A stretch of DNA of 64,000 nucleotides from an uncultured Pseudomonadales bacterium (GTDB taxonomy: Bacteria; Patescibacteriota; Microgenomatia; UBA1400; PJMF01). Below, piece after piece: positions 2,303-27,401 of this stretch (the first letter of the stretch is position 1; every line of letters starts with the position of its first letter). Location: assembly GCA_964607285.1 (NCBI GenBank), contig CAZSJW010000005.1, forward strand, positions 9,349 through 73,348, given 5' to 3'. Both the position numbers and the translations under genes were made by a program. Below the pieces are notes generated by a model, which did no database searches, was not told where the DNA came from, and worked only from the letters and a program-made list of their open reading frames with translations.

Positions 2303-3547
2303 TTACTCCAAAAAGTCCTGCAACTTCTTCCGTCTACTAGGATGCTTCAACTTCCGCAACGCCTTGGCTTCAATCTGCCGAATGCGCTCACGCGTCACGC
2401 CAAACTTGCGCCCAACTTCTTCCAAAGTCATCATTTTGTTGCCACTGAGTCCAAACCGCATCTTCAACACCTTTGCTTCTCGGTCCGACAGTGCTGCCAA
2501 AACCTCATCTACATTCTCGCGCAACATTTGCTGACTAGTTGCCTCGTACGGTGAAACCTGGCGGTCATCGGAAATGAAGTCTCCCAACACACTGTCGTCA
2601 TCACCGTCACCAACTGGTGACTCAAGGGAAGTGGTGTTTTGGGAAATTTTCAGAATCTCGCGAACCTTGTCTGGTTCCATCTCCATAGCCTGACCAATTT
2701 CCTCGGGGGTAGGCTCGCGACCCAAGTCTTGCATCAGGCGGCGGGAAGTGCGCATCAGTTTATTGATGGTCTCCACCATGTGCACCGGAATACGAATCGT
2801 TCGGGCTTGGTCTGCAATCGAACGGGTTATTGCCTGGCGAATCCACCATGTGGCGTAAGTAGAGAACTTGAAACCTTTTGTCCAGTCGAACTTCTCGACT
2901 GCACGAATCAGTCCTTTGTTGCCTTCTTGGATCAAGTCCAGGAACGTCATGCCGCGACCAATGTATTTTTTGGCTATCGAGACAACCAAGCGCAAGTTAG
3001 CGTCAGTTAAGCCTTTTTTAGCCTTCAGATCCCCAGCTTCCACCTGCTGAGCTAGGCGAATTTCTTCCTCGCGATTAAGCAAAGGAATGCGCCCAATTTC
3101 CTTGAGGTACATGCGGACAGGATCGGCCACACTTTTATCACCAAGGGTTGAAAGTGACTCCAATTCCTGTGCTAGAACATCTTCCTCAACAACATCTTTT
3201 TGCTCGGAAACGGACTCAAAAATATCTATACTTTTATGGATAATCTCATCATAAAAATCATCGAGTTGTACTATGTACTGCTCAGGCTCCACAAACACTT
3301 CTAAAATTTCATCTTGGGTGATGTACCCTTGTTTCTTGGCCTTTGTTAGGAGCTTCCGTACATCATCGACTAGAGCTGCTGGTACTTTTTTTGCCTGGCC
3401 AGTTAGACCCAAGGTAAAATCTTGATCAGTAGGCTCTGTAGCCTCAGCTACTGCAATCTCCAAGGCTGGCTCTGCAACAACATTTGATGTGTCTTCTGGA
3501 ACAGTTTTGGGGGCTTTTACTTTGGGAGAGGAAACTTTTTTAGGCAT
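2303..3547 (-). CDS. rpoD: RNA polymerase sigma-70 factor RpoD
   Basis: Carries sigma-70 region 2 ([34 protein letters not shown]), region 1.2/3 blocks and a region 4 HTH ([30 protein letters not shown]). The ORF track extends it to 3715. The probable true start is the internal ATG at 3547 (MPKKVSSPK...), because the upstream 56 aa are Trp/Cys-rich and look like junk. Stop codon is TAA. Confidence 0.9.
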
Positions 3548-3735
3548 AACAACAAAACATAGAACCACCCGCGCCAGCCCTCTAATCGGCCAGCTGTCAA
3601 TACCTATCGAGCGTGAGTACCATGACGTACACCAGGTGTACTCACTGCGGGGGTCATAAGTTTTATAATTATACACTTGAAAGTCTAAAAAGAAAGAGGG
3701 GGGATTGCTAGACATTTCAACTGCACTCGTGCACG

Positions 3736-4053
3736 ATGGAACATGCTATGGCCGAACAAATTTCAACAAGTCCTCCAGTTACTCTAGAGCAAGCCCGCCA
3801 GCTACTGAAACCAGCTGTAATGTATCAGCGCACCGTAGATACGCTGGTCATGGCCTATCAGCAACTGGTTGCAAGAAACCCCACACATCTGGACTCACTA
3901 TCCGAGAAACACCTCCTAACGCTAAGTACCAACCCCAAACTAGAACGGAACAACCCACACAACCTCCCACAGCTCGCCAGCGAGAGTCAGAAGCTAGGGA
4001 CCGAAATCGAAATGAGCAACTGCAATACTGGAAAGATCGCATGGATGCGCTGA
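3736..4053 (+). CDS. hypothetical protein; its N-terminal domain is paralogous to the N-terminus of the 5049..6800 protein; possibly the first fragment of a decayed gene
   Basis: [45 protein letters not shown]...[12 protein letters not shown] aligns with MLEHVSLDLSDTQKLLKSPVTPKEVVDALVMAFLQLSAANH...SEHLKRLSLNHN of the downstream gene. Confidence 0.45.
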
Positions 4054-4241
4054 CATCATTTAGCGAGCTGCCAGCATTTGCAAAAGAATTTAGCAGTATT
4101 GTTGTGAACGATATGTTCTTCAGCTTTAGATTTTTCTAAATAGCCAGGAGACTAATTATTGAAGCAATAGACCAGTCACAAGATATAAATGAAATCCTCC
4201 AAGTTATACAAACACTCTACGACAATAACATCATCATTGAA

Positions 4242-4982
4242 TTGCAAAAGGACACACTTATAGAAAAACTGGAAAAAACTGGCGACATGGTTCGAGAACT
4301 GACTGACAGGCTTGCAAAATTAAAGCAAACTACTCTTGAAACACCTCTTGAAGCGTTTCTTCAAAAAACTCTTTCAATACTTCGGACAGCTGAACACCCA
4401 AAAACAAGTACGACACAGTACACATTGTATTTGCAAGACCTCTCTGAAAAAATTGCTACTATTGTGCCTGATAATATTCGTATGTACAGTTCTGCCCTAG
4501 AAGATGCTCTCCAATGTTATGACCTGCAAAAAGGTGTAGATACCCTCTTTAGTGAAGAACTTATTTCCACAAGTTTTTACTACTCGATTTCAAAAAGAAT
4601 TGGACACGCTCGCCTCAAAATAAAAACTGGACAAAATACAGAAAACATGAATCGCGCCTTTGATCTAGAAATCCGAAACATTGAAGATAGCCCACTAGAT
4701 ACTCATCCTAACTCTGTCTTCACAAATATTGTCATCATCGCCACACAAATACTTGAAACCCCAATGTCTGAACAGAAGTACGCAGAGCTGAGAGGAGTAT
4801 TGCTTGCAGTAGCTGCAGCAAAACTCAATGTATACGCACAACATAGAACACGCACAATGACAGAATGCAGCAAACTGAAAGATGCAGTACAAACGCTCAA
4901 CACTGGAGGTATCATTACCTCTGAAGCATTGCAGTACTACAAACAAAAGATACATCAAAAAGAACTTTCACTACGCAGATAG
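4242..4982 (+). CDS. hypothetical protein (246 aa, TTG start); possibly the C-terminal part of the same decayed gene
   Basis: The first start in an open frame is TTG at 4242. That frame is open from 4140 and is the same frame as ORF 3705..4139, separated from it only by the TAA at 4137-4139. Confidence 0.4.
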   Translation: MQKDTLIEKLEKTGDMVRELTDRLAKLKQTTLETPLEAFLQKTLSILRTAEHPKTSTTQYTLYLQDLSEKIATIVPDNIRMYSSALEDALQCYDLQKGVDTLFSEELISTSFYYSISKRIGHARLKIKTGQNTENMNRAFDLEIRNIEDSPLDTHPNSVFTNIVIIATQILETPMSEQKYAELRGVLLAVAAAKLNVYAQHRTRTMTECSKLKDAVQTLNTGGIITSEALQYYKQKIHQKELSLRR

Positions 4983-5048
4983 TTAGTGTTCCTCACTAAA
5001 ATAATAGCTAGACAATAACAACACATTACTGCACAATTACCTATAAAT

Positions 5049-6800
5049 ATGCTTGAACATGTATCATTAGACCTTTCAGACACGCAAAAGCTACTGAAAT
5101 CTCCTGTCACCCCAAAGGAAGTAGTAGATGCACTCGTCATGGCGTTTTTACAACTGAGTGCCGCTAACCATGCTCTACCAGATGACAAACAGTCAGAACA
5201 CTTAAAACGATTGAGTCTCAACCACAATGATACCCAATCCCGCCGTTGGCTAAGCAGCCAGCTGGAGAGACTTCTAAAGCAAACCAGAGAGTCAGGCTCG
5301 AGCACCAAAGAAACAAAAATAGTTGATTTTCTCAACACATTTGAACAAAGAGTACAGGGTATTAGGTCATATCGATACGTCAGAGAGATTGATCTCTCGG
5401 GCACGGTGCAAAGAAGCTCTGTCTCACAAGAAGACTGCTATCAAGTACTTGGAGTAGACAGAAATGCTGACGTGAAAGCAATTAAGCAAGCCTATATAGC
5501 GTGTGCCGAAGTGCTCAGGCCTATCATCGAACAGCAAGATGGTGAGCTCAGTGCAGATGTAAAAAAACGAGCAAATGATGCACTCAAACGTATCAACAAT
5601 GCCTGGGGGGTGCTCAGAGACCCCAGACAAAAATCTGACTTTGACAGTGAACTAACATTTTCTGGTGGTACAAGCTATCAGTGGAATCAAACTACAACCC
5701 AACGCCCTCCTGAACCTGCACCCACTAGAGAAAGACCAAGGCCCACAGAACGAACAGATGGCTGGCAATCATTCACTGTGCAGGATTGGATGAACTATAT
5801 CGATAGGCTGGTTTCGTTTCGTGAGCTAACTACAGTTGTAAACCAACTTGAAAAAGCCACATACTCAACACTCTCAATGGTGGATGCAGATAGAGTAGCG
5901 AAAATATTTAAACAAAAAGCAATCAAACTCATTGAAACAGCAGCAGACATAGCTAGTACCACGGAAGATAGGGATGAAATAAGAAAAGTGGTTTTCCATC
6001 TTCACATCAGGTCTATTTTTACCAATGAGGAAAGAGATCGTTTATATGCACTTAGCGCAATTGCCTCCTATAGGAGGGATATTCTCATTGAATTAAAAGA
6101 TATTCAAGACCTTTCTGAAGATACACCATTCACTGAGGTGGTAGAAAAAATTCTTTCTCTCAATAGAGTGTTTGCATTTATTGATGCTATCAATAGCAAA
6201 ACAGCTGAGAAGCTATCTGATCTAAAAGAAATGCTTGCTAATCTTACACGAAGCATGGTAAAAAAGTACGGTTCAGGGCTTCAGAATGCAAAAGAGTGTT
6301 CTGACTTGCAGGTGGGAATTGCCGTGCTCTTGCAGGAAGAGCTTATATCAGAACGGTTGTATACCTCGACTGTGTCTCAAATCAATGAGTTCTTGGAAAG
6401 GCAGGAATTAAGTCACACAGGGAATGAAGAAATTAGCAAATGGTTTGAACTTGCCATCGACCAAATTTTCAATATGTGGGTCAATACAGACCCAAAAATT
6501 ATGTTTGAAAACGTCAGTCATGCACATAAGCAGCTAGAAAAAGCAAGGCGAATAAAGAAGATAACAAACAAAGCATATGAGGATCATCTCGATGCATTAC
6601 GAAGTGGCCTTGATGCAAAAATCAAATTGTATATACGAGCAAACACTAACACACTTGATGAGCTTGCTTCATTAGCAATAGACATAGACCAACTGTTTAC
6701 TGATCAAGTAATTGACAATATAAACTATAGAGAGTACATAACTCTGATAGACAAAAAACGAAAAAAGGACTTCTCTTGGTGGAAAAAAGGGTTTCTTTAG
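5049..6800 (+). CDS. hypothetical protein with a J-like (DnaJ N-terminal-like) domain lacking the HPD motif
   Basis: Residues ~128-200 read DCYQVLGVDRNADVKAIKQAYIACAEVLRPI...ALKRINNAWGVLRDPRQKSDFD. This is the J-domain helix II/III pattern (DYYxxLGV...IKKAY...(HPD)...INxAYxVLxDxxxRxxYD) with HPD replaced by LRP. The rest is alpha-helical with no recognised domain. Confidence 0.7.
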   Translation: MLEHVSLDLSDTQKLLKSPVTPKEVVDALVMAFLQLSAANHALPDDKQSEHLKRLSLNHNDTQSRRWLSSQLERLLKQTRESGSSTKETKIVDFLNTFEQRVQGIRSYRYVREIDLSGTVQRSSVSQEDCYQVLGVDRNADVKAIKQAYIACAEVLRPIIEQQDGELSADVKKRANDALKRINNAWGVLRDPRQKSDFDSELTFSGGTSYQWNQTTTQRPPEPAPTRERPRPTERTDGWQSFTVQDWMNYIDRLVSFRELTTVVNQLEKATYSTLSMVDADRVAKIFKQKAIKLIETAADIASTTEDRDEIRKVVFHLHIRSIFTNEERDRLYALSAIASYRRDILIELKDIQDLSEDTPFTEVVEKILSLNRVFAFIDAINSKTAEKLSDLKEMLANLTRSMVKKYGSGLQNAKECSDLQVGIAVLLQEELISERLYTSTVSQINEFLERQELSHTGNEEISKWFELAIDQIFNMWVNTDPKIMFENVSHAHKQLEKARRIKKITNKAYEDHLDALRSGLDAKIKLYIRANTNTLDELASLAIDIDQLFTDQVIDNINYREYITLIDKKRKKDFSWWKKGFL

Positions 6801-6838
6801 GCAGTTGTGGAGATCTACCAGACTCAACAGCAGAAGCC

Positions 6839-8155
6839 CTACACCGTCCCCCGCACCATCATAGCATCCACTACCGCCCTGACTGCTCCAGAATAGGTAG
6901 CCATACGGGCACTCACTCCTGTTTTTTCCTTCAGTTGCCACATTTGATCAAATGAGTGCTCCATCAGGGGCTGCAGTTTTGCAAGAACCTCATCCTTAGT
7001 CCAATAATACCCTGCTAAGTTCTGCACCCACTCAAAGTAAGAAGTTGTTACTCCACCAGCATTTGCCAGAACATCAGGAATTGAGATTACTCCTGCCTTT
7101 TCTAGAATTGCATCTGCCTCAGGCGTGACGGGACCATTAGCCATCTCAATAATTGCTTTAGCCTTGATTCGATTAGCATTTTCAGCTGTTATCACGTTTT
7201 CTAGTGCAGCTGGCACAAGGATATCTACATCAAGTTCAAGTAATTCTGAGTTAGTAATTTTCTGACCAAGTGAAATGTGGCACTGCTCATCGGTACACAT
7301 ACACTCCTGAATGTTTCCAAACTTCTGTTTGCACTCCAAAGTTTTTTCAGGGTGCATACTTTGCTCAGCCATGTATACGCCACCACTTGAGTCAGACAAC
7401 GCCACTATCTGGTACCCACGCTGGTAGGCATGCCAAGCAAACCAGTAGCCCACATTACCAAAGCCTTGTATAGCAATACGTGCATCCTGCTTGCGCTCAA
7501 AGCCCATTTTCTCTACTAATTTATCTAAGATGTACACCCCACCCAACCCCGTTGCTTCCTCCCGACCCTGCGAGCCACCCAACCCGAGTGGTTTGCCCGT
7601 AAAGCTAGCTAAGGGATTCTCTGAGGTCTTTCCCTGTTCTTTTTGCCATTTTGCATACTCATCCACCATCCAAGCCATTATCTGAGGGGTAGTGTTTACG
7701 TCTGGCGCAGGCACATCCACCCAAGGGCCAATTGCCTCTGCCACAAACCTTGAGTATGCCCGACTTAGTCGTTGCAGTTCACCTTCACTGAGCTTGCGGG
7801 GATCTACTACTACGCCCCCTTTACCACCACCATACGGAATGCCTGTGACAGCACACTTCCACGTCATCCAAGTAGATAGAGCCATCACTTCTTCTTTAGT
7901 CACGTCCTGGTGAAACCTGATACCACCCTTGTACGGCCCGCGGGCCGCATTGTGCTGCGCACGAAATGCTTTAAATGTTTGTTGTGCTCCTGAATCCATC
8001 TCAATACTCAGATCAGCTTCCAACACACGCTCGGGCTGCTGCAACTGGGTAATTGCCGCATCAAATCGTTTGCGCTCAGCCTCAGGATATTGATCTCGCA
8101 GCAACGCCGCTACCTGCTCGAGTTGCTTGATCGCACTTTGGTGTGGATTGGTCAT
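6839..8155 (-). CDS. gdhA: NAD(P)-specific glutamate dehydrogenase
   Basis: Carries the Glu/Leu/Phe/Val dehydrogenase signature KGGIRFHQDVTKEEVMALSTWMTWKCAVTGIPYGGGKGG and a C-terminal Rossmann domain (GFGNVG). Confidence 0.9.
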   Translation of the reverse strand: MTNPHQSAIKQLEQVAALLRDQYPEAERKRFDAAITQLQQPERVLEADLSIEMDSGAQQTFKAFRAQHNAARGPYKGGIRFHQDVTKEEVMALSTWMTWKCAVTGIPYGGGKGGVVVDPRKLSEGELQRLSRAYSRFVAEAIGPWVDVPAPDVNTTPQIMAWMVDEYAKWQKEQGKTSENPLASFTGKPLGLGGSQGREEATGLGGVYILDKLVEKMGFERKQDARIAIQGFGNVGYWFAWHAYQRGYQIVALSDSSGGVYMAEQSMHPEKTLECKQKFGNIQECMCTDEQCHISLGQKITNSELLELDVDILVPAALENVITAENANRIKAKAIIEMANGPVTPEADAILEKAGVISIPDVLANAGGVTTSYFEWVQNLAGYYWTKDEVLAKLQPLMEHSFDQMWQLKEKTGVSARMATYSGAVRAVVDAMMVRGTV

Positions 8156-8197: not shown

Positions 8198-9259
8198 TTA
8201 CTGTCGTTCTAGCCACCGTTCCACATCGAGTGCTGCGCTACAGCCCTGTCCAGCAGCTGTGATTGCTTGCTTGTAGCGCACATCGACATTGTCACCTGCG
8301 GCAAAAACACCTTCAACTGAAGTCATAGTGGGATAGGCAATAAGACCTTCTTCAGTCAGAGCAGCTTGTGCTGCATCCAACCCAATTTTGGTAGCACTCT
8401 GGCGAGTCACCAAGTAGTCATGACCATCCAACTGCACTTGATCTGCAAAAACTTGGGTGGTGGGTTTATGGCCAATCGCCATAAACACGCCCTCTGCTGG
8501 CAGCTCTTTTTCCACCCCATTTTCGTTTATCTTGATTTTTTCTACCTTTTCTGCACCAAGTATCTCTAGCACCTGTGTGTTCCATAGTACCTTGATTTTA
8601 GGATTGGCTAACACGCGCTCTTGCATAATCTTACTAGCTTTAAACGAGTCTCGGCGGTGTAGGATAGTCACGCTTTTGGCAAACTTGCTTAATGCCGTGG
8701 CATCTTCCATAGCACTGTCTCCACCACCTACTACAAACACAGTTTTCTCTTTAAAAAACGCAGCATCACACACAGCGCAAGTGCTCACGCCTTTTGAGAG
8801 CAACTCTTTCTCACCAGGCACTCCTAGCATAATCGAGGAAGCACCAGTGGAAAGTACCACCGCATCTGCCGTCCATTGTGGTTCTGTCTTCCGTAGTGTG
8901 GTCATGACTTCATGTAACTCTTCAGGTTTACCCATTTTGTACAGTTCATAGGGCGTGCCGTCAGGTAGCTCAGTCCAGATCTTAAACGGTCTTTGACTAA
9001 AATCTACAGCGGTAACCAACTCATCTCGCATCACCGCCCCAAATCGCTCAGATTGTGCACGCATGGCAAACATTAGTTCAGGCCCCTGAATTCCCTCAGC
9101 AAACCCTGCAAAGTTCTCAACCTCAGTGGTGTACATGAGCTGACCACCACTTTCAGGCCCGGTGAAGACTGTGGGAGCAAGCAAGGCTCGGGCTGTATAG
9201 ACAGCTGCTGAGTACCCAGCTGGTCCTGATCCAATAATTGCAACTTTTGTATGTGCCAT
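8198..9259 (-). CDS. trxB: thioredoxin-disulfide reductase
   Basis: FAD motif VAIIGSGPAGYSAAVYTARA, redox-active CAVCD, NADPH motif VVGGGDSAMEDA. The ORF track starts at 9301 and overlaps trxA. The likely start is the internal Met at 9259 (MAHTKVAIIG). It contains a ~30-aa insertion (LPDGTPYELYKMGKPEELHEVMTTLRKTEPQW) relative to the classical enzyme. Confidence 0.85.
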   Translation of the reverse strand: MAHTKVAIIGSGPAGYSAAVYTARALLAPTVFTGPESGGQLMYTTEVENFAGFAEGIQGPELMFAMRAQSERFGAVMRDELVTAVDFSQRPFKIWTELPDGTPYELYKMGKPEELHEVMTTLRKTEPQWTADAVVLSTGASSIMLGVPGEKELLSKGVSTCAVCDAAFFKEKTVFVVGGGDSAMEDATALSKFAKSVTILHRRDSFKASKIMQERVLANPKIKVLWNTQVLEILGAEKVEKIKINENGVEKELPAEGVFMAIGHKPTTQVFADQVQLDGHDYLVTRQSATKIGLDAAQAALTEEGLIAYPTMTSVEGVFAAGDNVDVRYKQAITAAGQGCSAALDVERWLERQ

Positions 9260-9284
9260 ACGTGCTTTCTGAGAAACGGTATTG

Positions 9285-9653
9285 TTAGTCGTTTGAAACA
9301 ACTACTTTGTCTAGTAACTTTCTGTAACCTGGTTCTCCAGGAAAACCGATGACTTTATCAACGGGCTTGCCATCTTTGAATGCAATGACTGTTGGAATAC
9401 TCATTACCCCAAACTTACCAGGTGTTTGCGTGTTTTCATCTACGTCCATTTTAACTATGATGGCTTTATCTGCGTACTCGTCAGATAATTTATCAATAAT
9501 AGGTGCGGCCAAGCGGCAGGGGCCACACCAAGTTGCGAAAAAGTCCACGATAACGGGCTTTTTTTCATCGGCAGCTTTTTTTAGCAGCGTGTCAAAGTCT
9601 GCATCAGTCCAATGTGCTGCACCTTTGTGTTGTGTGTTTTGTTGATCGTTCAT
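9285..9653 (-). CDS. trxA: thioredoxin
   Basis: Carries the WCGPC active site (FFATWCGPCRLAAP) at thioredoxin size (122 aa). Confidence 0.9.
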   Translation of the reverse strand: MNDQQNTQHKGAAHWTDADFDTLLKKAADEKKPVIVDFFATWCGPCRLAAPIIDKLSDEYADKAIIVKMDVDENTQTPGKFGVMSIPTVIAFKDGKPVDKVIGFPGEPGYRKLLDKVVVSND

Positions 9654-9688
9654 ACACTCCTTCTTATACCGAGCTGTGCTCGTATATG

Positions 9689-9934
9689 TTAATACCGAAA
9701 TACTTCTTTAAGAACATCTTCAAGTTCATCTGTTTTACGCTCCTGGGTACACCGAGAAGCTTCACTAGTCAGTAAGTCTCGGGCTACTCTGCCCAGGCTA
9801 CTGCGAGCGGCTATCACCTGGCGGACAATATCCACGCAATTGCGCTCGTCCTCATACATCTTAACGAGTCCATCAAGCTGACCGCGTATTCGCTTCAGCT
9901 GGGTAATTACTTTGTCTGATGGTTGTGCCGACAT
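9689..9934 (-). CDS. CsoR/RcnR/FrmR-family metal- or stress-sensing transcriptional repressor
   Basis: An 81-aa protein reading LKRIRGQLDGLVKMYEDERNCVDIVRQVIAARSSLGRVARDLL...CTQ. This is the DUF156 helical-bundle pattern with Cys residues at the conserved sensing positions. Confidence 0.7.
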   Translation of the reverse strand: MSAQPSDKVITQLKRIRGQLDGLVKMYEDERNCVDIVRQVIAARSSLGRVARDLLTSEASRCTQERKTDELEDVLKEVFRY

Positions 9935-10011
9935 GGAATCAATATACCCCTAGGGGGTATGTGGTGTCAAGCGGGAAAAGGTGTTTTGGTAATCACTAAC
10001 TGTACTTGATC

Positions 10012-11910
10012 TCAACGCCAGCGACCCAGATCTATACCTTGTTGTCCGTACAGTGCTACCTCAGGATATTGGCGTTCCAACGACTGATTTTGTAGTGCAG
10101 AAAGCAGTCTATTTCGTAGAGACGCTATAATTGCTCCAACCTCTTTGTTTGCTTGATTGAGAGTATCAGTGACTGCAGTATAGGTTGACTGCAATCTCTG
10201 CAATTTTCCTTCAGCTAACAAACGCCTTTCAGACATTGGTTCCAAATGCAAGTATTTTTCAGCGAACGCATACCCTTGCAATTCTGTCAGCAAACTATCA
10301 CTCTCCAGTGGGATCCTATTGAGGGGTGGCAAGTACTTTTGTCTCCAAAAGAAACCGAGTCCTTTTTGCCTGCCTGGATCAGTAGGTGCCTCTGATTTTG
10401 TGTACAAAGGAACTGAAGAAATGCGATCTGCCTCTGCTGATGGATCTGTGCTCACAGGAGCAAGTTCAGTTGCTTGCGGATTAACGGCAATAAGCCAATC
10501 ACTGACTGCCTGACTAATCTTGTCAGTGTCATACGAAAGTCTGAGACCTGCAGCAAACGCCAAGACACAAGCAACTTGTGCAGACCCTTCTGGAATCTGC
10601 TTGGATGTAAACAGTTCTTCAAGTTTGACCGCTCCCACAAAGGACAAATCTAGGACGACAAACAGTTTATTCCTCCAAGGAAAACCAGATTCGCTACTCC
10701 AAAGTTGGGCATGCTTAAACTCCAACTCTTCTATGGTGTCCCCAGGTTTTCTACCCGTTTTGAAACAGTCAATGATACTGTCATACAAATGAGCACCCTC
10801 AGTCTGAAAAGACTCTAGCGTTTCAGTTGGCAGCTCAGCACCCTTCTGTTCTGAATACAGCTTAGAAAACTCCAGTTGTGTGTGTGCTGCAACCACTGTA
10901 GCCTTAGCACGCTCTACGACAGCTTCACTGCGATGTTTGATATCGAACTTATCTTTTATTGATAGTCGATCTATAGTAAGGGAAAGTGGTGCAACATTGA
11001 CTCCTGAATCCTTCAATAACTCCCAAGCGTATGCTGATACTCCATCCTGTTTTTGTGATTTTAGTTCAAACAAACTAGACCATACTGGTCGGTCACCATC
11101 AATTACTCTCTTATACATCTCTTGAGCGCCTTGTATCTTCTGCATCAAAAGATACTCTTCCATGCTTGGATTCTCTATGGTGATCCCAATTTCTCTCTGG
11201 AGTGCACTACTGCTTTTTCGGTCCATCTGGCGCAAGCTATCTGTAAGCGTTGATGGTGTCTCTGGTACATTGGCCTGTGGTGCATTGCGGTCAGTCCTGA
11301 CTGTATTGCGAGACCAATTCTGTTGAAGTGCCTCTTGATGTCTAGGGTTTGCCAGTCTCTCATAGTACTCCCGAACCGAAGCTTCCTTTTTTTCCTGAAC
11401 TTCCCGCCATAACTTTTCATTACTCTTAAAACTATCCAACTTCACTCCATCATCAAGCAAAGTGTCGGATAGATTGTACAGTTTCCTCTCATTTTCCCGA
11501 ACATTAATCGGCTCTACTCGGGGAATAGAAAAAAGATTAAACCTTTTGCCAAAGTTGGCAAACATGTTTTGAACTCTGGCTAATAACTTTGAGCGATGCT
11601 GTAGCTTACTTGCTTCCCACTCCTGATTCTCGCGTTCTTCCCGTAGCTGCAAGCCTGTCTCAAACTTTTTATGTGATAGAAGTCTACGCTTAAAGTCAAT
11701 TGCAGGACCTGCCTCAGCTAGCTCTCTCAATTTTTGCTCAGCCCACTGTTGCTCTGGTGAAAAACTCCCAGAAGCTGATGTGCGAATTGGTCTAGAGGCT
11801 TGGTGCTTTTCTTGTGGATCAGAAATCATTGCCAGGGGCTGTTCACCATCAGAACTGTACCGTTTTTTGTCTCTATCAAATACTGATGTATCGAACTCTT
11901 TGTCTATCAT
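10012..11910 (-). CDS. large hypothetical protein (632 aa), no recognisable domain
   Basis: Long uninterrupted ORF, hydrophilic and helical, with no catalytic motif recognised by eye. Confidence 0.6.
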   Translation of the reverse strand: MIDKEFDTSVFDRDKKRYSSDGEQPLAMISDPQEKHQASRPIRTSASGSFSPEQQWAEQKLRELAEAGPAIDFKRRLLSHKKFETGLQLREERENQEWEASKLQHRSKLLARVQNMFANFGKRFNLFSIPRVEPINVRENERKLYNLSDTLLDDGVKLDSFKSNEKLWREVQEKKEASVREYYERLANPRHQEALQQNWSRNTVRTDRNAPQANVPETPSTLTDSLRQMDRKSSSALQREIGITIENPSMEEYLLMQKIQGAQEMYKRVIDGDRPVWSSLFELKSQKQDGVSAYAWELLKDSGVNVAPLSLTIDRLSIKDKFDIKHRSEAVVERAKATVVAAHTQLEFSKLYSEQKGAELPTETLESFQTEGAHLYDSIIDCFKTGRKPGDTIEELEFKHAQLWSSESGFPWRNKLFVVLDLSFVGAVKLEELFTSKQIPEGSAQVACVLAFAAGLRLSYDTDKISQAVSDWLIAVNPQATELAPVSTDPSAEADRISSVPLYTKSEAPTDPGRQKGLGFFWRQKYLPPLNRIPLESDSLLTELQGYAFAEKYLHLEPMSERRLLAEGKLQRLQSTYTAVTDTLNQANKEVGAIIASLRNRLLSALQNQSLERQYPEVALYGQQGIDLGRWR

Positions 11911-11931: not shown

Positions 11932-12750
11932 TTAGTTCCTACCTTGCTTGTCATCCACTAAGCAGATGACACATACGTATTTGCCTCCAACTTTTTCGAA
12001 CCATATCGTACATGTCTGAGCATCATATGGATACGGTAGCGTAATCAGCAATGAGTTTTCATTCGCCTTGACGCGCGATAGGGTATTGATAGCCGACTCC
12101 CCTGACACAAAGTCAACTTTGCAGTCTAACCCCAAACCAGCCGTCCCTTGAGCCAAAATGTTGATTAAAGTATCTATCCCAACTTCCTCAAGTGCAATTT
12201 CATTCACTAAAAATAATTCCATACCAAACAGAAACTCACTGAGCACTTTATGAGCCATTCCAGTAATTGGCTCAATGTTCACGCCAAACTCACGAGCTCG
12301 AATACGGCTGGCTTCTACACCCTTTTGCACTAAACTAGCTATGCGTTTTTCCAATGTTTGTCTGCTTCCCAATTTTTCGAGATCTTTAATCAACACCATC
12401 GGGTCTAACAAAGTATCACCTTCACCATCCTTTATTAAGCTCAAGTACTGTTCTGGTTCAATCTTCAGATGTGCTGTGTGGCCAATTCTCTGTTCAACAG
12501 CTCCAAGGAAGACACCCTGATCAATGGCAGATAAACGCATTGAGCCTGCACTAATCTCTACTGTTTCGTCTGCAAGCATTGTATAGAATTCAAATTGACG
12601 TCCGTCATACCGAGCAAGGCTTTTCTGAAGCTCTGGCTTACTCTGGAATGCAGGGATGAGTGTGGCAGGAAAAACACTGTAGCGTTCATCTCGAATCAAA
12701 TAATTTACAACAAACTGCCACTCGGGATTTTGTTGTGAAAATACCTTCAT
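11932..12750 (-). CDS. hypothetical protein (272 aa)
   Basis: An ORF 21 nt downstream of the 632-aa gene on the same strand, with no recognisable motif. Confidence 0.55.
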   Translation of the reverse strand: MKVFSQQNPEWQFVVNYLIRDERYSVFPATLIPAFQSKPELQKSLARYDGRQFEFYTMLADETVEISAGSMRLSAIDQGVFLGAVEQRIGHTAHLKIEPEQYLSLIKDGEGDTLLDPMVLIKDLEKLGSRQTLEKRIASLVQKGVEASRIRAREFGVNIEPITGMAHKVLSEFLFGMELFLVNEIALEEVGIDTLINILAQGTAGLGLDCKVDFVSGESAINTLSRVKANENSLLITLPYPYDAQTCTIWFEKVGGKYVCVICLVDDKQGRN

Positions 12751-15629: not shown

Positions 15630-16232
15630 ATGAATTCTGAAGAACCAACAAAAATCAAACGAAATATATTTCGAACACTCGAGGCTAAATCACTTAGGCA
15701 AAGACCCTTTACAACTCGAATGGCTGATGAACTCACACAGTTGACTAGTACACCTACCTTCCTCTTTCTAAACGCTATCTTTTTTATACTCTGGATTCTA
15801 GTAAACACCGGAGTCATTCCCTTGTTCACACCGTTTGATCCCTATCCTTTTGGTTTTCTCACTATGGCTGTTTCTTTAGAAGCGATCTTTCTTTCCATCT
15901 TTGTGCTGGTCTCACAGAATAGAGCAGCGCAAATAGCTACGCTCCGTGATGAGCTGAACTTACGGGTAAACCTCATAGCTGAACAGGAAATTACCAAGTT
16001 ACTGCAGTTAGAGGTAGAATTACTTAAAAAATTGAATTCAGCTGATATCGTGGATAAAAAGGATACTGAACTGCAATTAATGCTCCAAGACCTCAGTGCC
16101 AGCTCACTGGAGCAATCCATTATCGATCAGTTGGAGCGAGCTGATCAGCCTTTGTTTCACGCCATCACCAAAAAAGAGTTTCCCGAAATTATCCAGGCAC
16201 TCACAGGTATCAGAAAAAAGAAACAAGCCTAA
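15630..16232 (+). CDS. DUF1003-family membrane protein
   Basis: Two TM helices and the motif FTPFDPYPFGFLTMAVSLEAIFLSIFVLVSQNRAAQ followed by a coiled coil, which fits my recollection of the DUF1003 signature (PFDPYPF...SQNRQ). The ORF track starts at 15591 inside the preceding gene. The internal Met at 15630 is more plausible. Confidence 0.5.
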   Translation: MNSEEPTKIKRNIFRTLEAKSLRQRPFTTRMADELTQLTSTPTFLFLNAIFFILWILVNTGVIPLFTPFDPYPFGFLTMAVSLEAIFLSIFVLVSQNRAAQIATLRDELNLRVNLIAEQEITKLLQLEVELLKKLNSADIVDKKDTELQLMLQDLSASSLEQSIIDQLERADQPLFHAITKKEFPEIIQALTGIRKKKQA

Positions 16233-18019
16233 CCCTGCTGCAACTGGACAATCTTTCGTAACAGTTCTTCCTGTCGGGCCTCCTGTTCAGGTGTTTTTTG
16301 AGAATTTGTATCCAGTTCAGTCAGCTCCCGAGTGAGTTCTTGTACTTCAATTTTACGAATCTCTTGTTGCAACTCTGCAAAACTGGATGCTAATTCAGGC
16401 TCAGGATGAAATCCTTTGGGTGCTTCTTTCAGAACAATGTGTTGTGGATCAGTGGTAATTTCAAACAACAGTAGCTGCTGATCATCAGCCAGTGATCGAT
16501 TAAACGCAGCTAAGTCAAAATCGCTTGAATTCTGTTTCAACTGCTTTACTAAATCTGCAATACCTGGTGTAGAAAACTGTACCGTAGAAAGTTTCGCACT
16601 CCAGGTGGCAAATGAAGTGCCTGACAGGTGCAAAAGAAGGAATACACACAGTTGCTCAAGAACCTGCCTTCTCGTTGCTTTAGAAATTGGCTTGGACTCT
16701 GGCTCTGCAATTTTCTGGTTGGTACTTTGCCCAAACTGTTTACCATGCTTAAACTTCTCCATATCAGCGCGAACACTGTCTTGTTTGACACCCAGCAGCT
16801 CTGCCACCTCACGTATGTAGTGCTCCTGCTCCACAGCGTGTGGAATGCCAGAGAGCAGTGGCGCAAGCTCAGCCATAATTTTTCTCTTGCCATCACCTGT
16901 TTTTTGATCAAACTGTTTACACGTAGCCCTAATCACAAATTCATACGCTGGTATAGCGGAGTTGACACTCTCTCTCCACAACTTAGGATCTGAGCGTGCT
17001 AAATCATCGGGATCTTTACCTTTTGGTAATACCACTACTTTTAGATCTAAAGTTGTCTCACGTAAAGTGATAATTGCTTTCTTTGTCGCTGCCACACCTG
17101 CTGCATCAGTATCTAGTGCCAACAGTACCGTTTGGACAGTCCTTCCCAGCAACTTAGCATGATCTGTAGTGAGAGCTGAACCTTTGATTGCTGCTACGGT
17201 ATCTACATGAGCCTGAGCGGATGAGATCACATCAAACTCACCCTCAACAATCACAATATGCCCAGCCTTCCTGATCTGCTGATACAACTCACTCAAACCG
17301 TACAGCATTTTGCTTTTGTGGTACACCATCGTTTCTGGGGAGTTTATATACTTTGCTTCTTTCTCAGATTTCTCCAAAACTCTACCCGAAAAACCAACTA
17401 TTTGTCCACGATGATTGCGCAGCGGAAACATAATCCGACCTCTGAACCGATCGTAGTACCGTCCAGAATTTCCTTTAAGTATCAGTCCTGCCTTTTCTAA
17501 AACTACCATGGAGTACTTTTTTTTGCCGTTCATGAACGTGAGCAATCCATCCCAAGCAGGCAGAGCATACCCAAGCTGAAAAAGCTTAATAGAATCTTTT
17601 GAAATGCCCCGCCCTTTTAGTACTACACGACCTGGTTCACCAGCTTTGTGTTCAGTTAATAGAAAATGGTAATACTCTTTTGCTAAGCTTAATGCAGCTA
17701 AGATCTCATCTCGCTCTGAGTCATCTGAGGTTTTATGAAACGTCTCCAGCTGCACCCCTTGCTCGTCAGCAAGGTACTTGAGTGCTTCATAGAAGCTCAT
17801 GCCATCATATTTTTCAAGAAAGGTGTACACATCACCAGTTTCTCCACACCCAAAACATTTATACCGTTGCATGGTTTGGTTGACGAAAAATGACGGACTG
17901 CGTTCTGAATGGAACGGACACAAGCCCCGATAGTATGCTCCAGAGCGCGACAAGTTCAGCCGTTCGCCAATAACGGCCACAATATCTGCTGCTTCTTTGA
18001 TCTGACGGATTTGGGACAT
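16229..18019 (-). CDS. dnaG: DNA primase
   Basis: CHC2 zinc finger CPFHSERSPSFFVNQTMQRYKCFGCGETGD, a TOPRIM region (EGEFDVIS...DTDAAG) and a C-terminal helical domain. It overlaps the preceding gene by 4 nt. Confidence 0.9.
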   Translation of the reverse strand: MSQIRQIKEAADIVAVIGERLNLSRSGAYYRGLCPFHSERSPSFFVNQTMQRYKCFGCGETGDVYTFLEKYDGMSFYEALKYLADEQGVQLETFHKTSDDSERDEILAALSLAKEYYHFLLTEHKAGEPGRVVLKGRGISKDSIKLFQLGYALPAWDGLLTFMNGKKKYSMVVLEKAGLILKGNSGRYYDRFRGRIMFPLRNHRGQIVGFSGRVLEKSEKEAKYINSPETMVYHKSKMLYGLSELYQQIRKAGHIVIVEGEFDVISSAQAHVDTVAAIKGSALTTDHAKLLGRTVQTVLLALDTDAAGVAATKKAIITLRETTLDLKVVVLPKGKDPDDLARSDPKLWRESVNSAIPAYEFVIRATCKQFDQKTGDGKRKIMAELAPLLSGIPHAVEQEHYIREVAELLGVKQDSVRADMEKFKHGKQFGQSTNQKIAEPESKPISKATRRQVLEQLCVFLLLHLSGTSFATWSAKLSTVQFSTPGIADLVKQLKQNSSDFDLAAFNRSLADDQQLLLFEITTDPQHIVLKEAPKGFHPEPELASSFAELQQEIRKIEVQELTRELTELDTNSQKTPEQEARQEELLRKIVQLQQG

Positions 18020-24983: not shown

Positions 24984-27401
24984 TCAATTCGGCACTGAGA
25001 CCCTTTGTTTGGATTCAACAATATCTCGCCTGGCACGAAATAAATTGAGTGCAAATAAATGGAACAAGAGTCCTTTGTAAGATGCTTGAACATCAGAAGC
25101 TGTCTCTTCTTGATCTAAAACAGCACCTTCATATCCTGTTAGGGTAAAGAAATTGTCAACTGAAATTTTTAGCAACGTAACTCCACCTCGAGCAGTTGCT
25201 GTTGCCGTTCTCACCCCAAGTCCTAACAAAGCTGCGTCCCCAAAACACCATCTTTTTCCAACTCCACGCTTGCAAATGGATTTCCAGTAAAAGAGTCGAG
25301 CACAACTGGTGGGCCTTCCCCAATACTATCAAGCACAATATATACACTATTGTTCTTATCGCCCACTGCAAAAAGAACTGTTTGCTCGGTTACTTCAATC
25401 CGCTCATAGGGAATAGACTTACTATCCAACGCCTGAAGGACAGTGTTTCCATCGTCGGGCACGAACCACTGATGCATGGAATTTTTTCTGGATTAGCTAT
25501 CTCTGCCGCAATCTCTTTACTAACTCTTGCTTGCCCACTTTTTCCTGGGCTTCTATCTCTGACAGTCGCTATAAACTCAAATGGAAAGTATCGCAGGAAG
25601 TACTCAGCCAGATACTGCAAAAGGGTAGCTGTATCTGTAGCCGTTTTAAGCTCAAGGAGAAAATTGTTTTGAGAATTGGATTTTGCAACACACTGCGAAT
25701 ACCTTCCCCACTGAGCTTGTACACGGTAACATCATCTATCGCACTTACGTCTGCAGTGCGAGGAATACCTAGTAAAACTAGGATCTCTCCTACACTCAGA
25801 GAGTATGGTCGTACTAACTTTTTTTGCGATCCCCCTTCCTCTGTAAACCTAATTTCCAGCAGACCTTGCTTAGAATGTCCAGGCTCTGAAGGCGGAATGA
25901 TCTACAGAGCATCTTCAGAATCATCACCTTGCGAAATTAGTGTAGTGCCAGCCAAGATATGCTCTTTTGTTATACCTAAGGCCTTACTTAACCGAAGCAG
26001 TACATCCATCAGTGCACGCCCCGTAGCATTACTGTCATAAATATCTTCAGCAGAACGTCGGTACTCTATACCAGCTGAGCTTGCCCAGTTAAAAATTAAC
26101 AGCTCACACTTAGCGCAATACTTACCCCAAACAGAAGGGTTAAAACGTAGTGACTCAGATTGATCTGGATACGTAAGCAGTGAGGTAGTGCTAGGGGAAT
26201 CTAGTGTGTACAGGGGATCTGTGCGAAGTCGTTCTGCTTGCTGCAAGAGTGCGAGCACGCTGACAGAAATTGATTCTTCACCGTACTTTCTGATAAAAGA
26301 CATAAAGATCGTTTCTGGTGGATAACTAGCGTGCAGCAACAAATGGGTCAAGTGTTGTTGTGCTTCTCTTTGATTTCTTTCTGGTATGCCTGCAAACGCT
26401 TTTGCTAAACCTATACGTATAGCAGTTTTTGACACCCGTTTTGCTCTAGAAACCCAGTCTTCTTTACCTCGCGTCTCAGCATTATATGTATCTGATCGAA
26501 CAAAAGAAGAAAAAACAAGTGCATCCAATCTATAGAATCACCACGCTCTAAAACAATTCTCTCAGCAATCTCAGTCGGACACACCTGAACCTGTGTCCAT
26601 TCTCTCAACCACAATGTTTTTCTGACCAATTTTTCTACTTCCCTAACTGAATGAGAGAGCATTCGCATACTCATGTATGTATACAGAGCAACTAGCCCAG
26701 AATGTTCTATCCTTTGTGAGGATACCTCCAAAGTTGGGTCTATAGACTCCATGACAGTTATAGCACCATCCTCACCGACAACACCGTTTAAATACTCATA
26801 CAATCGCTGGAAGTGTACCTCAATCGGCCTATGCTGATTTACGCGCTCATCGATGGTCTTTAAAAGATGCTTAGAAATTGCTTTCTATCTCCGTTTGAGA
26901 GTGTTCCCACATAGATACAACGCATATCAAAATCAGATATTGTATCACCTGGGGTGGGTGATTGATTACCATACTCAGTAAAAAAAAGTACTTGGGGAAA
27001 TTGCTGTGAATCACACAACTCACGTGTGATACTTGCCATTGCCTGGCGTTCAGAACTCACAAAAGGATCCATAGGACGTTCACCTATTGCTTGCTTGTTG
27101 GATCGAACAATAAATCCTGGATCATCAGGATCTGAAATGTTTCTCCCCTCACGCTGTATCGCTTGTTTAAAATGGTGTATCTCTTGATCGACTAATCTAG
27201 ATGTTGATCTTCGATTAACTGATCGCAATGGATCTGCGAACGACTTTTGTCCATCATACTGAGCAACAAACTTTTTTTTCGCCCCCTGGGGGGGGCCTCT
27301 TTCCATTTCCTGAGTACTGCAATCAGCTCTTGCTCTGTCAATTGCGCCGCAGGTAATTCAGTATCAGGTAGTTGTGATTTTTCAATGGCATTAACTATCA
27401 A
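24984..27401 (-). pseudogene. decayed ~800-codon multi-domain gene; the C-terminal half encodes two tandem cyclic-nucleotide-binding domains, the N-terminal half is of unknown function
   Basis: Six or more partly overlapping minus-strand ORFs tile 2.4 kb contiguously, each in a different frame. They start at 27401, 27306, 26803, 26528, 25620 and 25477, with an unlisted segment at 25900-25620. The minus-strand translation across 25900-25620 reads ...LAGTTLISQGDDSEDAL*IIPPSEPG...SVGEILVLLGIPRTADVSAIDDVTVYKLSGEGIRSVLQNP, a cNMP-binding domain with an in-frame TAG at the position where the conserved Tyr of GDxGDxxYIIxxG is expected. A second cNMP-binding domain (VLFAVGDKNNSVYIVLDSIGEG...GLGVRTATATARGGVTLLKISVDNF) is split by a frameshift near 25225. 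Confidence 0.55.
27272..27296. repeat. homopolymer cluster T8-CG-C5-T-G8 inside the frame-overlap zone of the decayed gene
   Basis: The plus strand reads cttttttttcgccccctggggggggcc. It encodes the GPPQGAKKK stretch of one fragment and lies where two fragment frames overlap (27192-27306). Confidence 0.6.

Follow-up and report, generated by a model that had tools for sequence, protein, structure and literature searches.

A disrupted tandem paralogue of an orphan J-like gene in a Patescibacteria genome

The described systems that lie closest to the locus reported here are ordinary tandem-duplicate pseudogenes, genes divided by fission and genes decoded through programmed -1 frameshifting, as in dnaX and the IS3-family transposases. 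For the protein family itself they are the J-domain proteins (PF00226, DnaJ/Hsp40), in which the HPD tripeptide is needed for stimulation of the Hsp70 ATPase, together with the HPD-less Pam16/Tim16. The locus occupies positions 3736-4982 of a 64,000-nucleotide stretch of contig CAZSJW010000005.1 (assembly GCA_964607285.1, contig positions 9,349 to 73,348 of the forward strand), and this whole stretch is called the window in what follows. It is a tandem paralogue of the gene at 5049-6800, which encodes an intact protein of 583 amino acids (aa) with a J-like domain. The original prediction, made from the DNA letters and a list of open reading frames (ORFs), read the upstream copy as an ancestral ~415-aa paralogue that had since decayed, or alternatively as two to three real small genes. 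That the three ORFs found there are colinear pieces of one ancestral ORF of ~415 codons (67 + 67 + 1 + 280) is well supported by the alignments and codon statistics given below. With a probability of roughly 0.55, the locus is the remnant of a single gene that was recently inactivated, for which we infer the order of the lesions and the loss of function.

All three ORFs lie where the original prediction had placed them and stand in the frame relations that it described. ORF 3736..4053 (105 aa) is in frame 1, and ORF 3705..4139 (144 aa) is in frame 0, one base back relative to the first. ORF 4242..4982 (246 aa) shares frame 0 with ORF 3705..4139, from which it is separated, as had been stated, by a lone TAA. 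The parts of the locus, followed by the intact copy, are as follows.

3736-3936, + strand: N-terminal domain of the upstream paralogue, in frame 1, matching residues 1-58 of the 583-aa protein.
3933-3939, + strand: CCCCAAA run, where homology and codon scores change frame.
3937-4053, + strand: final 38 codons of the N-terminal ORF, out of frame and closed by TGA 4051-4053.
3936-4136, + strand: frame-0 stretch made up of a P/T/Q/R-rich linker and then the first helices of the C-terminal domain, corresponding to residues 214-283 of the 583-aa protein.
4002-4013, + strand: tandem hexamer cgaaatcgaaat (cgaaat, twice) inside the linker, read as R-N-R-N in frame 0.
4137-4139, + strand: in-frame TAA, the sole stop of frame 0 in 3679-4982.
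4140-4241, + strand: 34 coding-like codons, with a codon score equal to the median of real genes.
4242-4982, + strand: rest of the helical C-terminal domain, open from TTG 4242 and ending at TAG 4980-4982.
5049-6800, + strand: intact downstream paralogue of 583 aa, with an N-domain, a J-like domain, a disordered linker and an all-helical C-terminal domain.

ATG 3736 is the counterpart of the start of the 583-aa protein (M-EH versus MLEH), and the frame-0 stretch 3936-4136 lacks a start codon of its own by which it could be joined to the N-domain. In the NCBI record the upstream copy appears as separate coding sequences (CDSs) of 101 aa (P0003, 3748..4053, from ATG 3748) and 231 aa (P0001, 4287..4982, from ATG 4287), and the 583-aa CDS is annotated as well.

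The paralogy is carried by several alignments. A conceptual 416-residue product was assembled by reading frame 1 and then frame 0, with X at the TAA, and this -1-shifted, stop-suppressed translation was aligned to the 583-aa protein. Two colinear blocks were obtained: residues 5-87 align with residues 1-75 of the 583-aa protein, and residues 97-395 align with residues 244-555 at 25% identity (E = 1e-19), without a gap at the stop. The N-terminal resemblance on which the original prediction drew is borne out, as the N-domain (3736-3936) scores 83 against residues 1-58, where shuffled sequences score 30 +/- 4.4 and none of 2000 reaches that value. With tblastn of the 583-aa protein against the DNA, frame 0 of 3936-4916 matches residues 214-555 with E = 2.5e-20 (4e-29 against the region alone), and the frame-0 block extends back to 3936, where it matches QTTTQRPPEPAPTRER (residues 214-229). 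The C-terminal part (4242..4982) has ~25% identity to residues 334-570 and lies inside alignments with E values of 1e-19 to 4e-29. A custom-written, frameshift-aware alignment of protein to DNA, applied to the locus, stays in one frame from 3936 to 4961, passing through the TAA with zero further frame changes.

Taken piece by piece, the similarity is graded along the locus. The linker (3921-4019) gives a suggestive result, with 113-116 of 2000 shuffles reaching its score (p ~0.057). The segment before the TAA (4020-4136) aligns with VQDWMNYIDRLVSFREL (residues 244-260), its best match being colinear and its score being reached in 20 of 5000 shuffles. For 4140-4241 the similarity is colinear and weak, and the frame-1 tail (3937-4050) does not resemble the 583-aa protein, its score being reached by 632 of 2000 shuffles. 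Overall, the three parts of the copy (N-domain, linker, C-domain) match residues 1-58 and 214-570 in the same order as in the 583-aa protein. The upstream copy has no counterpart of residues ~59-213, which comprise two helices and the J domain, and searches of Pfam, NCBIfam and PHROG returned no match for any of its pieces and no J domain there. The proposed ancestral paralogue of ~415 aa is thus retained as one colinear ORF interrupted by a -1 shift and one TAA, but it was not simply a shorter twin of its neighbour, as the J-containing middle is absent.

Codon log-odds scores, trained on 30 long genes of the window, also place the change of frame.

3736-3936, frame 1: 0.27, normal coding, typical of real genes.
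3937-4050 (the tail), frame 1: 0.00, in the lowest 1% of real in-frame windows.
3705-3935, frame 0: -0.04, non-coding.
3936-4019, frame 0: 0.26, coding.
4020-4136, frame 0: 0.18, coding.
4140-4241, frame 0: 0.35, coding.
4242-4979, frame 0: 0.30, coding.

The two halves of ORF 3705..4139 differ as the original prediction had supposed: the 5' half, called junk-like, has non-coding statistics over 3705-3935 and no similarity, and the protein-like 3' end is the coding segment that matches residues 244-260. These data locate the -1 frame change between 3936 and ~4019. CCCC 3933-3936 (followed by AAA to 3939) is the sole homopolymer of at least four bases in 3900-4030; frame-1 homology stops and frame-0 homology starts at this run, and the codon scores switch frame at ~3936. 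The most probable place of the switch is this CCCC run, which precedes by ~70 nt the tandem hexamer that the original prediction had proposed as the switching point. That hexamer, cgaaatcgaaat, is present at 4002-4013 as described, but it is rejected as the frameshift site, as a 6-nt repeat keeps the frame and both the frame-0 homology and the coding signal begin 66 nt upstream of it, at ~3936 rather than at ~4010. The simplest and most probable event at 3933-3939 is the deletion of 1 nt, after which reading can continue only by a -1 shift; the exact site and type of this event we infer from the positions of these changes.

Under the favoured reading, the locus would have begun as an old tandem paralogue lacking the J domain, intact for long enough to diverge to ~25% identity. 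In the first lesion a single base would have been lost, the CCCC/AAA run at 3933-3939 being its most probable position, and the linker and the C-terminal domain would thereby have fallen out of frame. A later point change would then have created the TAA at 4137-4139, a change expected to be neutral once the frameshift existed. Translation from ATG 3736 (or 3748) would now give only the 67-residue N-domain with a 38-residue nonsense tail, and the linker and C-terminal domain, with neither a promoter nor a ribosome-binding signal of their own, would probably not be made. One former gene is favoured over two or three small genes because 3936-4241 is coding-like and partly (3936-4070) paralogue-like, yet no ORF containing it combines a canonical start with the N-domain. 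In particular, inspection for start codons found no ATG, GTG or TTG in frame within 4140-4241, and as this segment is fully coding-like it would have been part of a longer ORF until recently. A further indication of a young lesion comes from the mutational target: 4.4% of the possible point changes in 3936-4979 give stops, so a single stop would fit ~2% neutral divergence, with the rest of the frame still open.

Several points weigh against recent inactivation or limit how firmly it can be held. The family has no homologue in the searched collections, and neither an orthologue nor a second assembly of the locus was found that would support either lesion independently. Downstream of the TAA, 280 codons form an uninterrupted frame of normal codon usage, as would equally be expected if it were expressed or if the lesions were errors, and the NCBI record gives two separate CDSs. 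In addition, the linker similarity that sites the switch at 3936 is, taken alone, suggestive, and the similarity of 4140-4241 to the paralogue is not significant by itself against shuffles.

The TAA itself is read as an ordinary stop. Among 35 long ORFs of the window, TAA ends 15, TAG 10 and TGA 10; TAA is therefore a normal stop here and the standard code applies. An alternative genetic code, or reassignment of TAA, is rejected on the same count, as TAA is the commonest terminator in the window. Paired compensating local frameshifts around the TAA are likewise rejected, since neither of the other frames is open at that position and the alignment that allows for frameshifts keeps to one frame.

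The strongest of the alternatives, possible although unlikely, is a functional fission, in which the two domains are now made as independent proteins, the N-domain as one of 101-105 aa and the C-domain as one of 231-246 aa (from TTG 4242 or ATG 4287). Exactly such CDSs stand in the NCBI record, and past the TAA the C-terminal frame runs on for 280 codons without a stop or another frame change, its codon statistics being normal. Under this reading, however, ~100 coding-like codons (3936-4241), some of them with homology to the paralogue, would go untranslated, and the N-terminal ORF would end in a 38-codon tail with non-coding statistics. The C-terminal piece also has no evident start: 4140-4241 offers no canonical start codon, and neither a Shine-Dalgarno (SD) sequence nor a -10-like or other promoter-like box precedes TTG 4242 or ATG 4287. 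Alternatively, ribosomes that terminate at the TAA could start again at ATT 4158, which follows AGGAGA, and make a C-domain protein of ~274 aa. In favour of this variant, AGGAG is rare (~0.00066 per nt) and a copy lies just past the stop, 7 nt ahead of ATT 4158. However, AGGAGA at 4146-4151, which has ATT triplets downstream at 4155 and 4158, codes for Arg-Arg, and this pair aligns opposite a basic K-Q-K patch of the paralogue, so that the motif is accounted for by the protein sequence. An SD core is used by only 7 of the 35 genes here, and AUU is a very weak start codon. Furthermore, when the TAA is projected onto the paralogue it falls inside the predicted helix of residues 277-301 (AlphaFold2 (AF2), a low-confidence model), so the cut would not lie at a domain boundary.

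A separate observation concerns start signals in the window as a whole. A -10-like TANNNT box lies 5-18 nt upstream of the ATG at 12 of 34 starts, compared with 14.7% at all ATG triplets; examples are 16229..18019, 27962, 40922, 42627, 43353, 44743 and 5049. Together with the scarcity of SD cores, this suggests frequent leaderless or very short-leader messenger RNAs in the host organism.

It is also doubtful that the interruption is an artefact of assembly or consensus, under which the gene would really be intact over ~415 codons and would appear broken through an indel error in a homopolymer plus an incorrect base, or through mixed strains in the consensus of a metagenome-assembled genome (MAG). 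The frame change does fall at the sole homopolymer run in the area, the rest of the ORF looks intact and coding, and the sequence comes from a contig of 82,323 bp (NCBI) that was assembled from a metagenome. Against this, two lesions of unlike kind, an indel and a substitution, would have to be errors inside 200 nt, and a 4-nt run is short for a homopolymer error. About 50 other ORFs of the window are uninterrupted, several of them 800-1100 codons long, and the integrity of the other long genes makes a generally error-prone assembly unlikely. A look-up with the thioredoxin led to a 1.8-kb contig of an independent assembly, the Logan assembly of SRR12762285, that is 100% identical over 1772 nt at 9130-10901, which speaks for base accuracy, though this contig lies outside the locus.

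One feature of the 5' end stands apart from the broken gene. The frame of 3705, which is the -1 frame relative to the N-domain, is open across the whole N-domain region (3679-3935), an openness seen in 0.85% of 67-codon windows in real genes and in 3.5% of codon-order shuffles, and a run of six G (3698-3703) precedes TTG 3705 at SD-like spacing. A real gene in frame 0 from TTG 3705 is rejected, as its first 77 codons have non-coding statistics and are similar to nothing. The openness is probably due to chance in T-poor sequence, the codon statistics being non-coding. In addition, two 8-bp arms 17 nt apart, GTGAGTAC (3613-3620) and GTACTCAC (3638-3645), form a perfect inverted repeat within the divergent intergenic region from rpoD to the N-domain ORF; this repeat may serve as an operator or form an RNA hairpin.

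A very improbable alternative is an unconventional decoding of the locus, in which a tRNA-Pro would slip by -1 at C-CCC 3933-3936 to give a 134-aa product, translation would stop at the TAA, and re-initiation at AUU 4158 would make the C-domain. It is hinted at only by two features: the -1 frame over the N-domain is unusually open, and an SD-like element comes just after the stop. If true, one apparently broken orphan gene would give three products, the 134-aa product joining the N-domain and linker to a W-x4-D-x-L-x-SF-x-EL helix.

Most improbable of all is programmed recoding, in which a -1 slip at AAC CCC AAA C, readthrough of the TAA, or both would give a regulated mix of short and long products: a P-site tRNA-Pro on CCC (3934-3936) could re-pair perfectly one base back on CCC (3933-3935), and the -1 frame is open over the N-domain as described above, but two recoding events would be needed in one gene, the frame-1 reading AAC CCC AAA is not of the form X XXY YYZ and would require the A-site AAA tRNA to re-pair with CAA, no X XXY YYZ slippery heptamer occurs in 3900-4050, the 91 nt downstream (3940-4030) fold worse than shuffles (-10.4 versus a mean of -13.9 kcal/mol, z = +1.15), no notable RNA structure follows the TAA (z = -1.3), and TAA, the commonest stop of the window, is an efficient terminator in bacteria when followed by A.

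Turning to the intact copy, the J-like domain of the 583-aa protein occupies residues 129-199 (nt 5433-5645) and reaches 37.1 bits with Pfam DnaJ (PF00226), above the 27.8-bit cut-off. This region aligns with the J domain of E. coli DnaJ (E = 1e-10), matches to NCBIfam are confined to it, and PHROG gave no matches outside it. Where E. coli DnaJ has H33-P34-D35, the 583-aa protein has R-P-I. With the HPD motif replaced in this way, the domain is called J-like rather than a canonical co-chaperone, and from its sequence it is probably unable to stimulate Hsp70. The N- and C-terminal flanking domains match no known family, and a profile search of the PDB gave one marginal, meaningless match. A single-sequence AF2 model of the protein had a mean predicted local distance difference test (pLDDT) score of 49, and only its secondary structure was used, cautiously. 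A promoter-like TAGACA-17-CACAAT stands ahead of the gene at 5009-5037.

Both paralogues lie in an insertion that sets this genome apart from its relatives.

3548-6838, no strand assigned: 3.3-kb lineage-specific insertion between rpoD (2303-3547, - strand) and gdh (6839-8155, - strand), with both paralogues on the opposite strand to these genes.

The host is a Patescibacteria MAG, Microgenomates/Pacebacteria-like, and its rpoD is 79-84% identical to rpoD of Patescibacteria MAGs labelled Pacebacteria, Paceibacterota, Woesebacteria or Microgenomates. The genes gdh and rpoD are direct neighbours on one strand in 11 related Patescibacteria genomes, most of which show the order csoR-trx-trxB-gdh-rpoD on the fetched locus. 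None of 80 related loci encodes a relative of either paralogue. No flanking repeats were found around the insertion; a phage or defence origin is rejected, as the PHROG matches are to the J region only and such repeats are absent. When 5.8 billion proteins were searched through a word index, the 583-aa protein, the 280-aa C-part and the conceptual 134-aa N-part matched nothing beyond proteins of the contig itself, and a full HMMER profile search of 1.84 billion representatives gave the same result. No relative was found in GTDB genomes, in JGI metagenomes (by a protein-pattern scan and an exact 20-mer) or in IMG/VR, and exact-protein contig look-ups with the 583-aa protein, P0001 and gdh had none on record. 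The family is an orphan, so far seen in one Patescibacteria MAG.

Some further observations were made around the insertion and elsewhere in the window. Many of the closest rpoD relatives (~80% identity) were deposited as 'uncultured Pseudomonadales bacterium' or 'Gammaproteobacteria' (loci L002, L004, L005, L010-L012 and others), and these names on Patescibacteria relatives look like mislabelling in public records. At the same gdh/rpoD junction another related locus, L009, carries an unrelated 177-aa ORF on the opposite strand (L009 9321-9854), and the junction may be a hotspot for lineage-specific genes. Beside the csoR-trx-trxB-gdh block lie hypothetical proteins of 632 aa (10012..11910, - strand) and 272 aa (11932..12750, - strand), which are singletons in the protein collection, have no Pfam match and are absent from the relatives' syntenic loci. 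Finally, a chain of short ORFs in different frames runs along the minus strand at 25223-27306, consisting of 26860..27306 (148 aa), 26411..26803 (130 aa), 25902..26528 (208 aa) and 25223..25477 (84 aa); ORF 25902..26528 overlaps 26411..26803 by 118 nt, and the chain has codon scores of 0.25-0.36 and no Pfam match. It could be a second fragmented orphan gene.

If the upstream copy is indeed a recently inactivated gene, the public CDSs of 101 aa and 231 aa would be better described as fragments of one disrupted gene of ~415 codons. The locus would then present a small, clean case of lineage-specific gene birth, duplication, domain loss and decay, all within DNA inserted between two housekeeping genes that are otherwise tightly syntenic, in an ultra-small bacterium. 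The feature is ordinary in kind and has little significance beyond annotation; it is the family, an orphan, that is unusual.

Set beside the systems named at the outset, the locus shares part of its organization with each. With J-domain proteins and the HPD-less Pam16/Tim16 it shares a domain, in the 583-aa paralogue, that passes the Pfam DnaJ threshold; unlike J-domain proteins, that paralogue has R-P-I in place of HPD and unmatched flanking domains, and the upstream copy lacks the J region altogether. As in the programmed -1 frameshifting of dnaX and the IS3-family transposases, overlapping frames would have to be joined by a -1 shift and a run of identical bases lies at the junction, but here there is neither an in-frame slippery heptamer nor a downstream stem-loop or pseudoknot, there are no homologues, and an extra in-frame stop follows 200 nt on. 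As in gene fission, the N-domain and C-domain lie in separate ORFs that were annotated separately by the depositor; unlike in gene fission, ~100 formerly coding codons fall outside ORFs with canonical starts, the second piece has no evident start signal, and the break lies within a predicted helix. The likeness to ordinary tandem-duplicate pseudogenes is that one copy is intact and the other carries a 1-nt homopolymer frame change and a downstream stop, and the codon usage of the broken copy, which is still gene-like, indicates that inactivation was recent. The broken copy here, however, is not a fresh duplicate but had long been a diverged, domain-reduced paralogue with no J domain.

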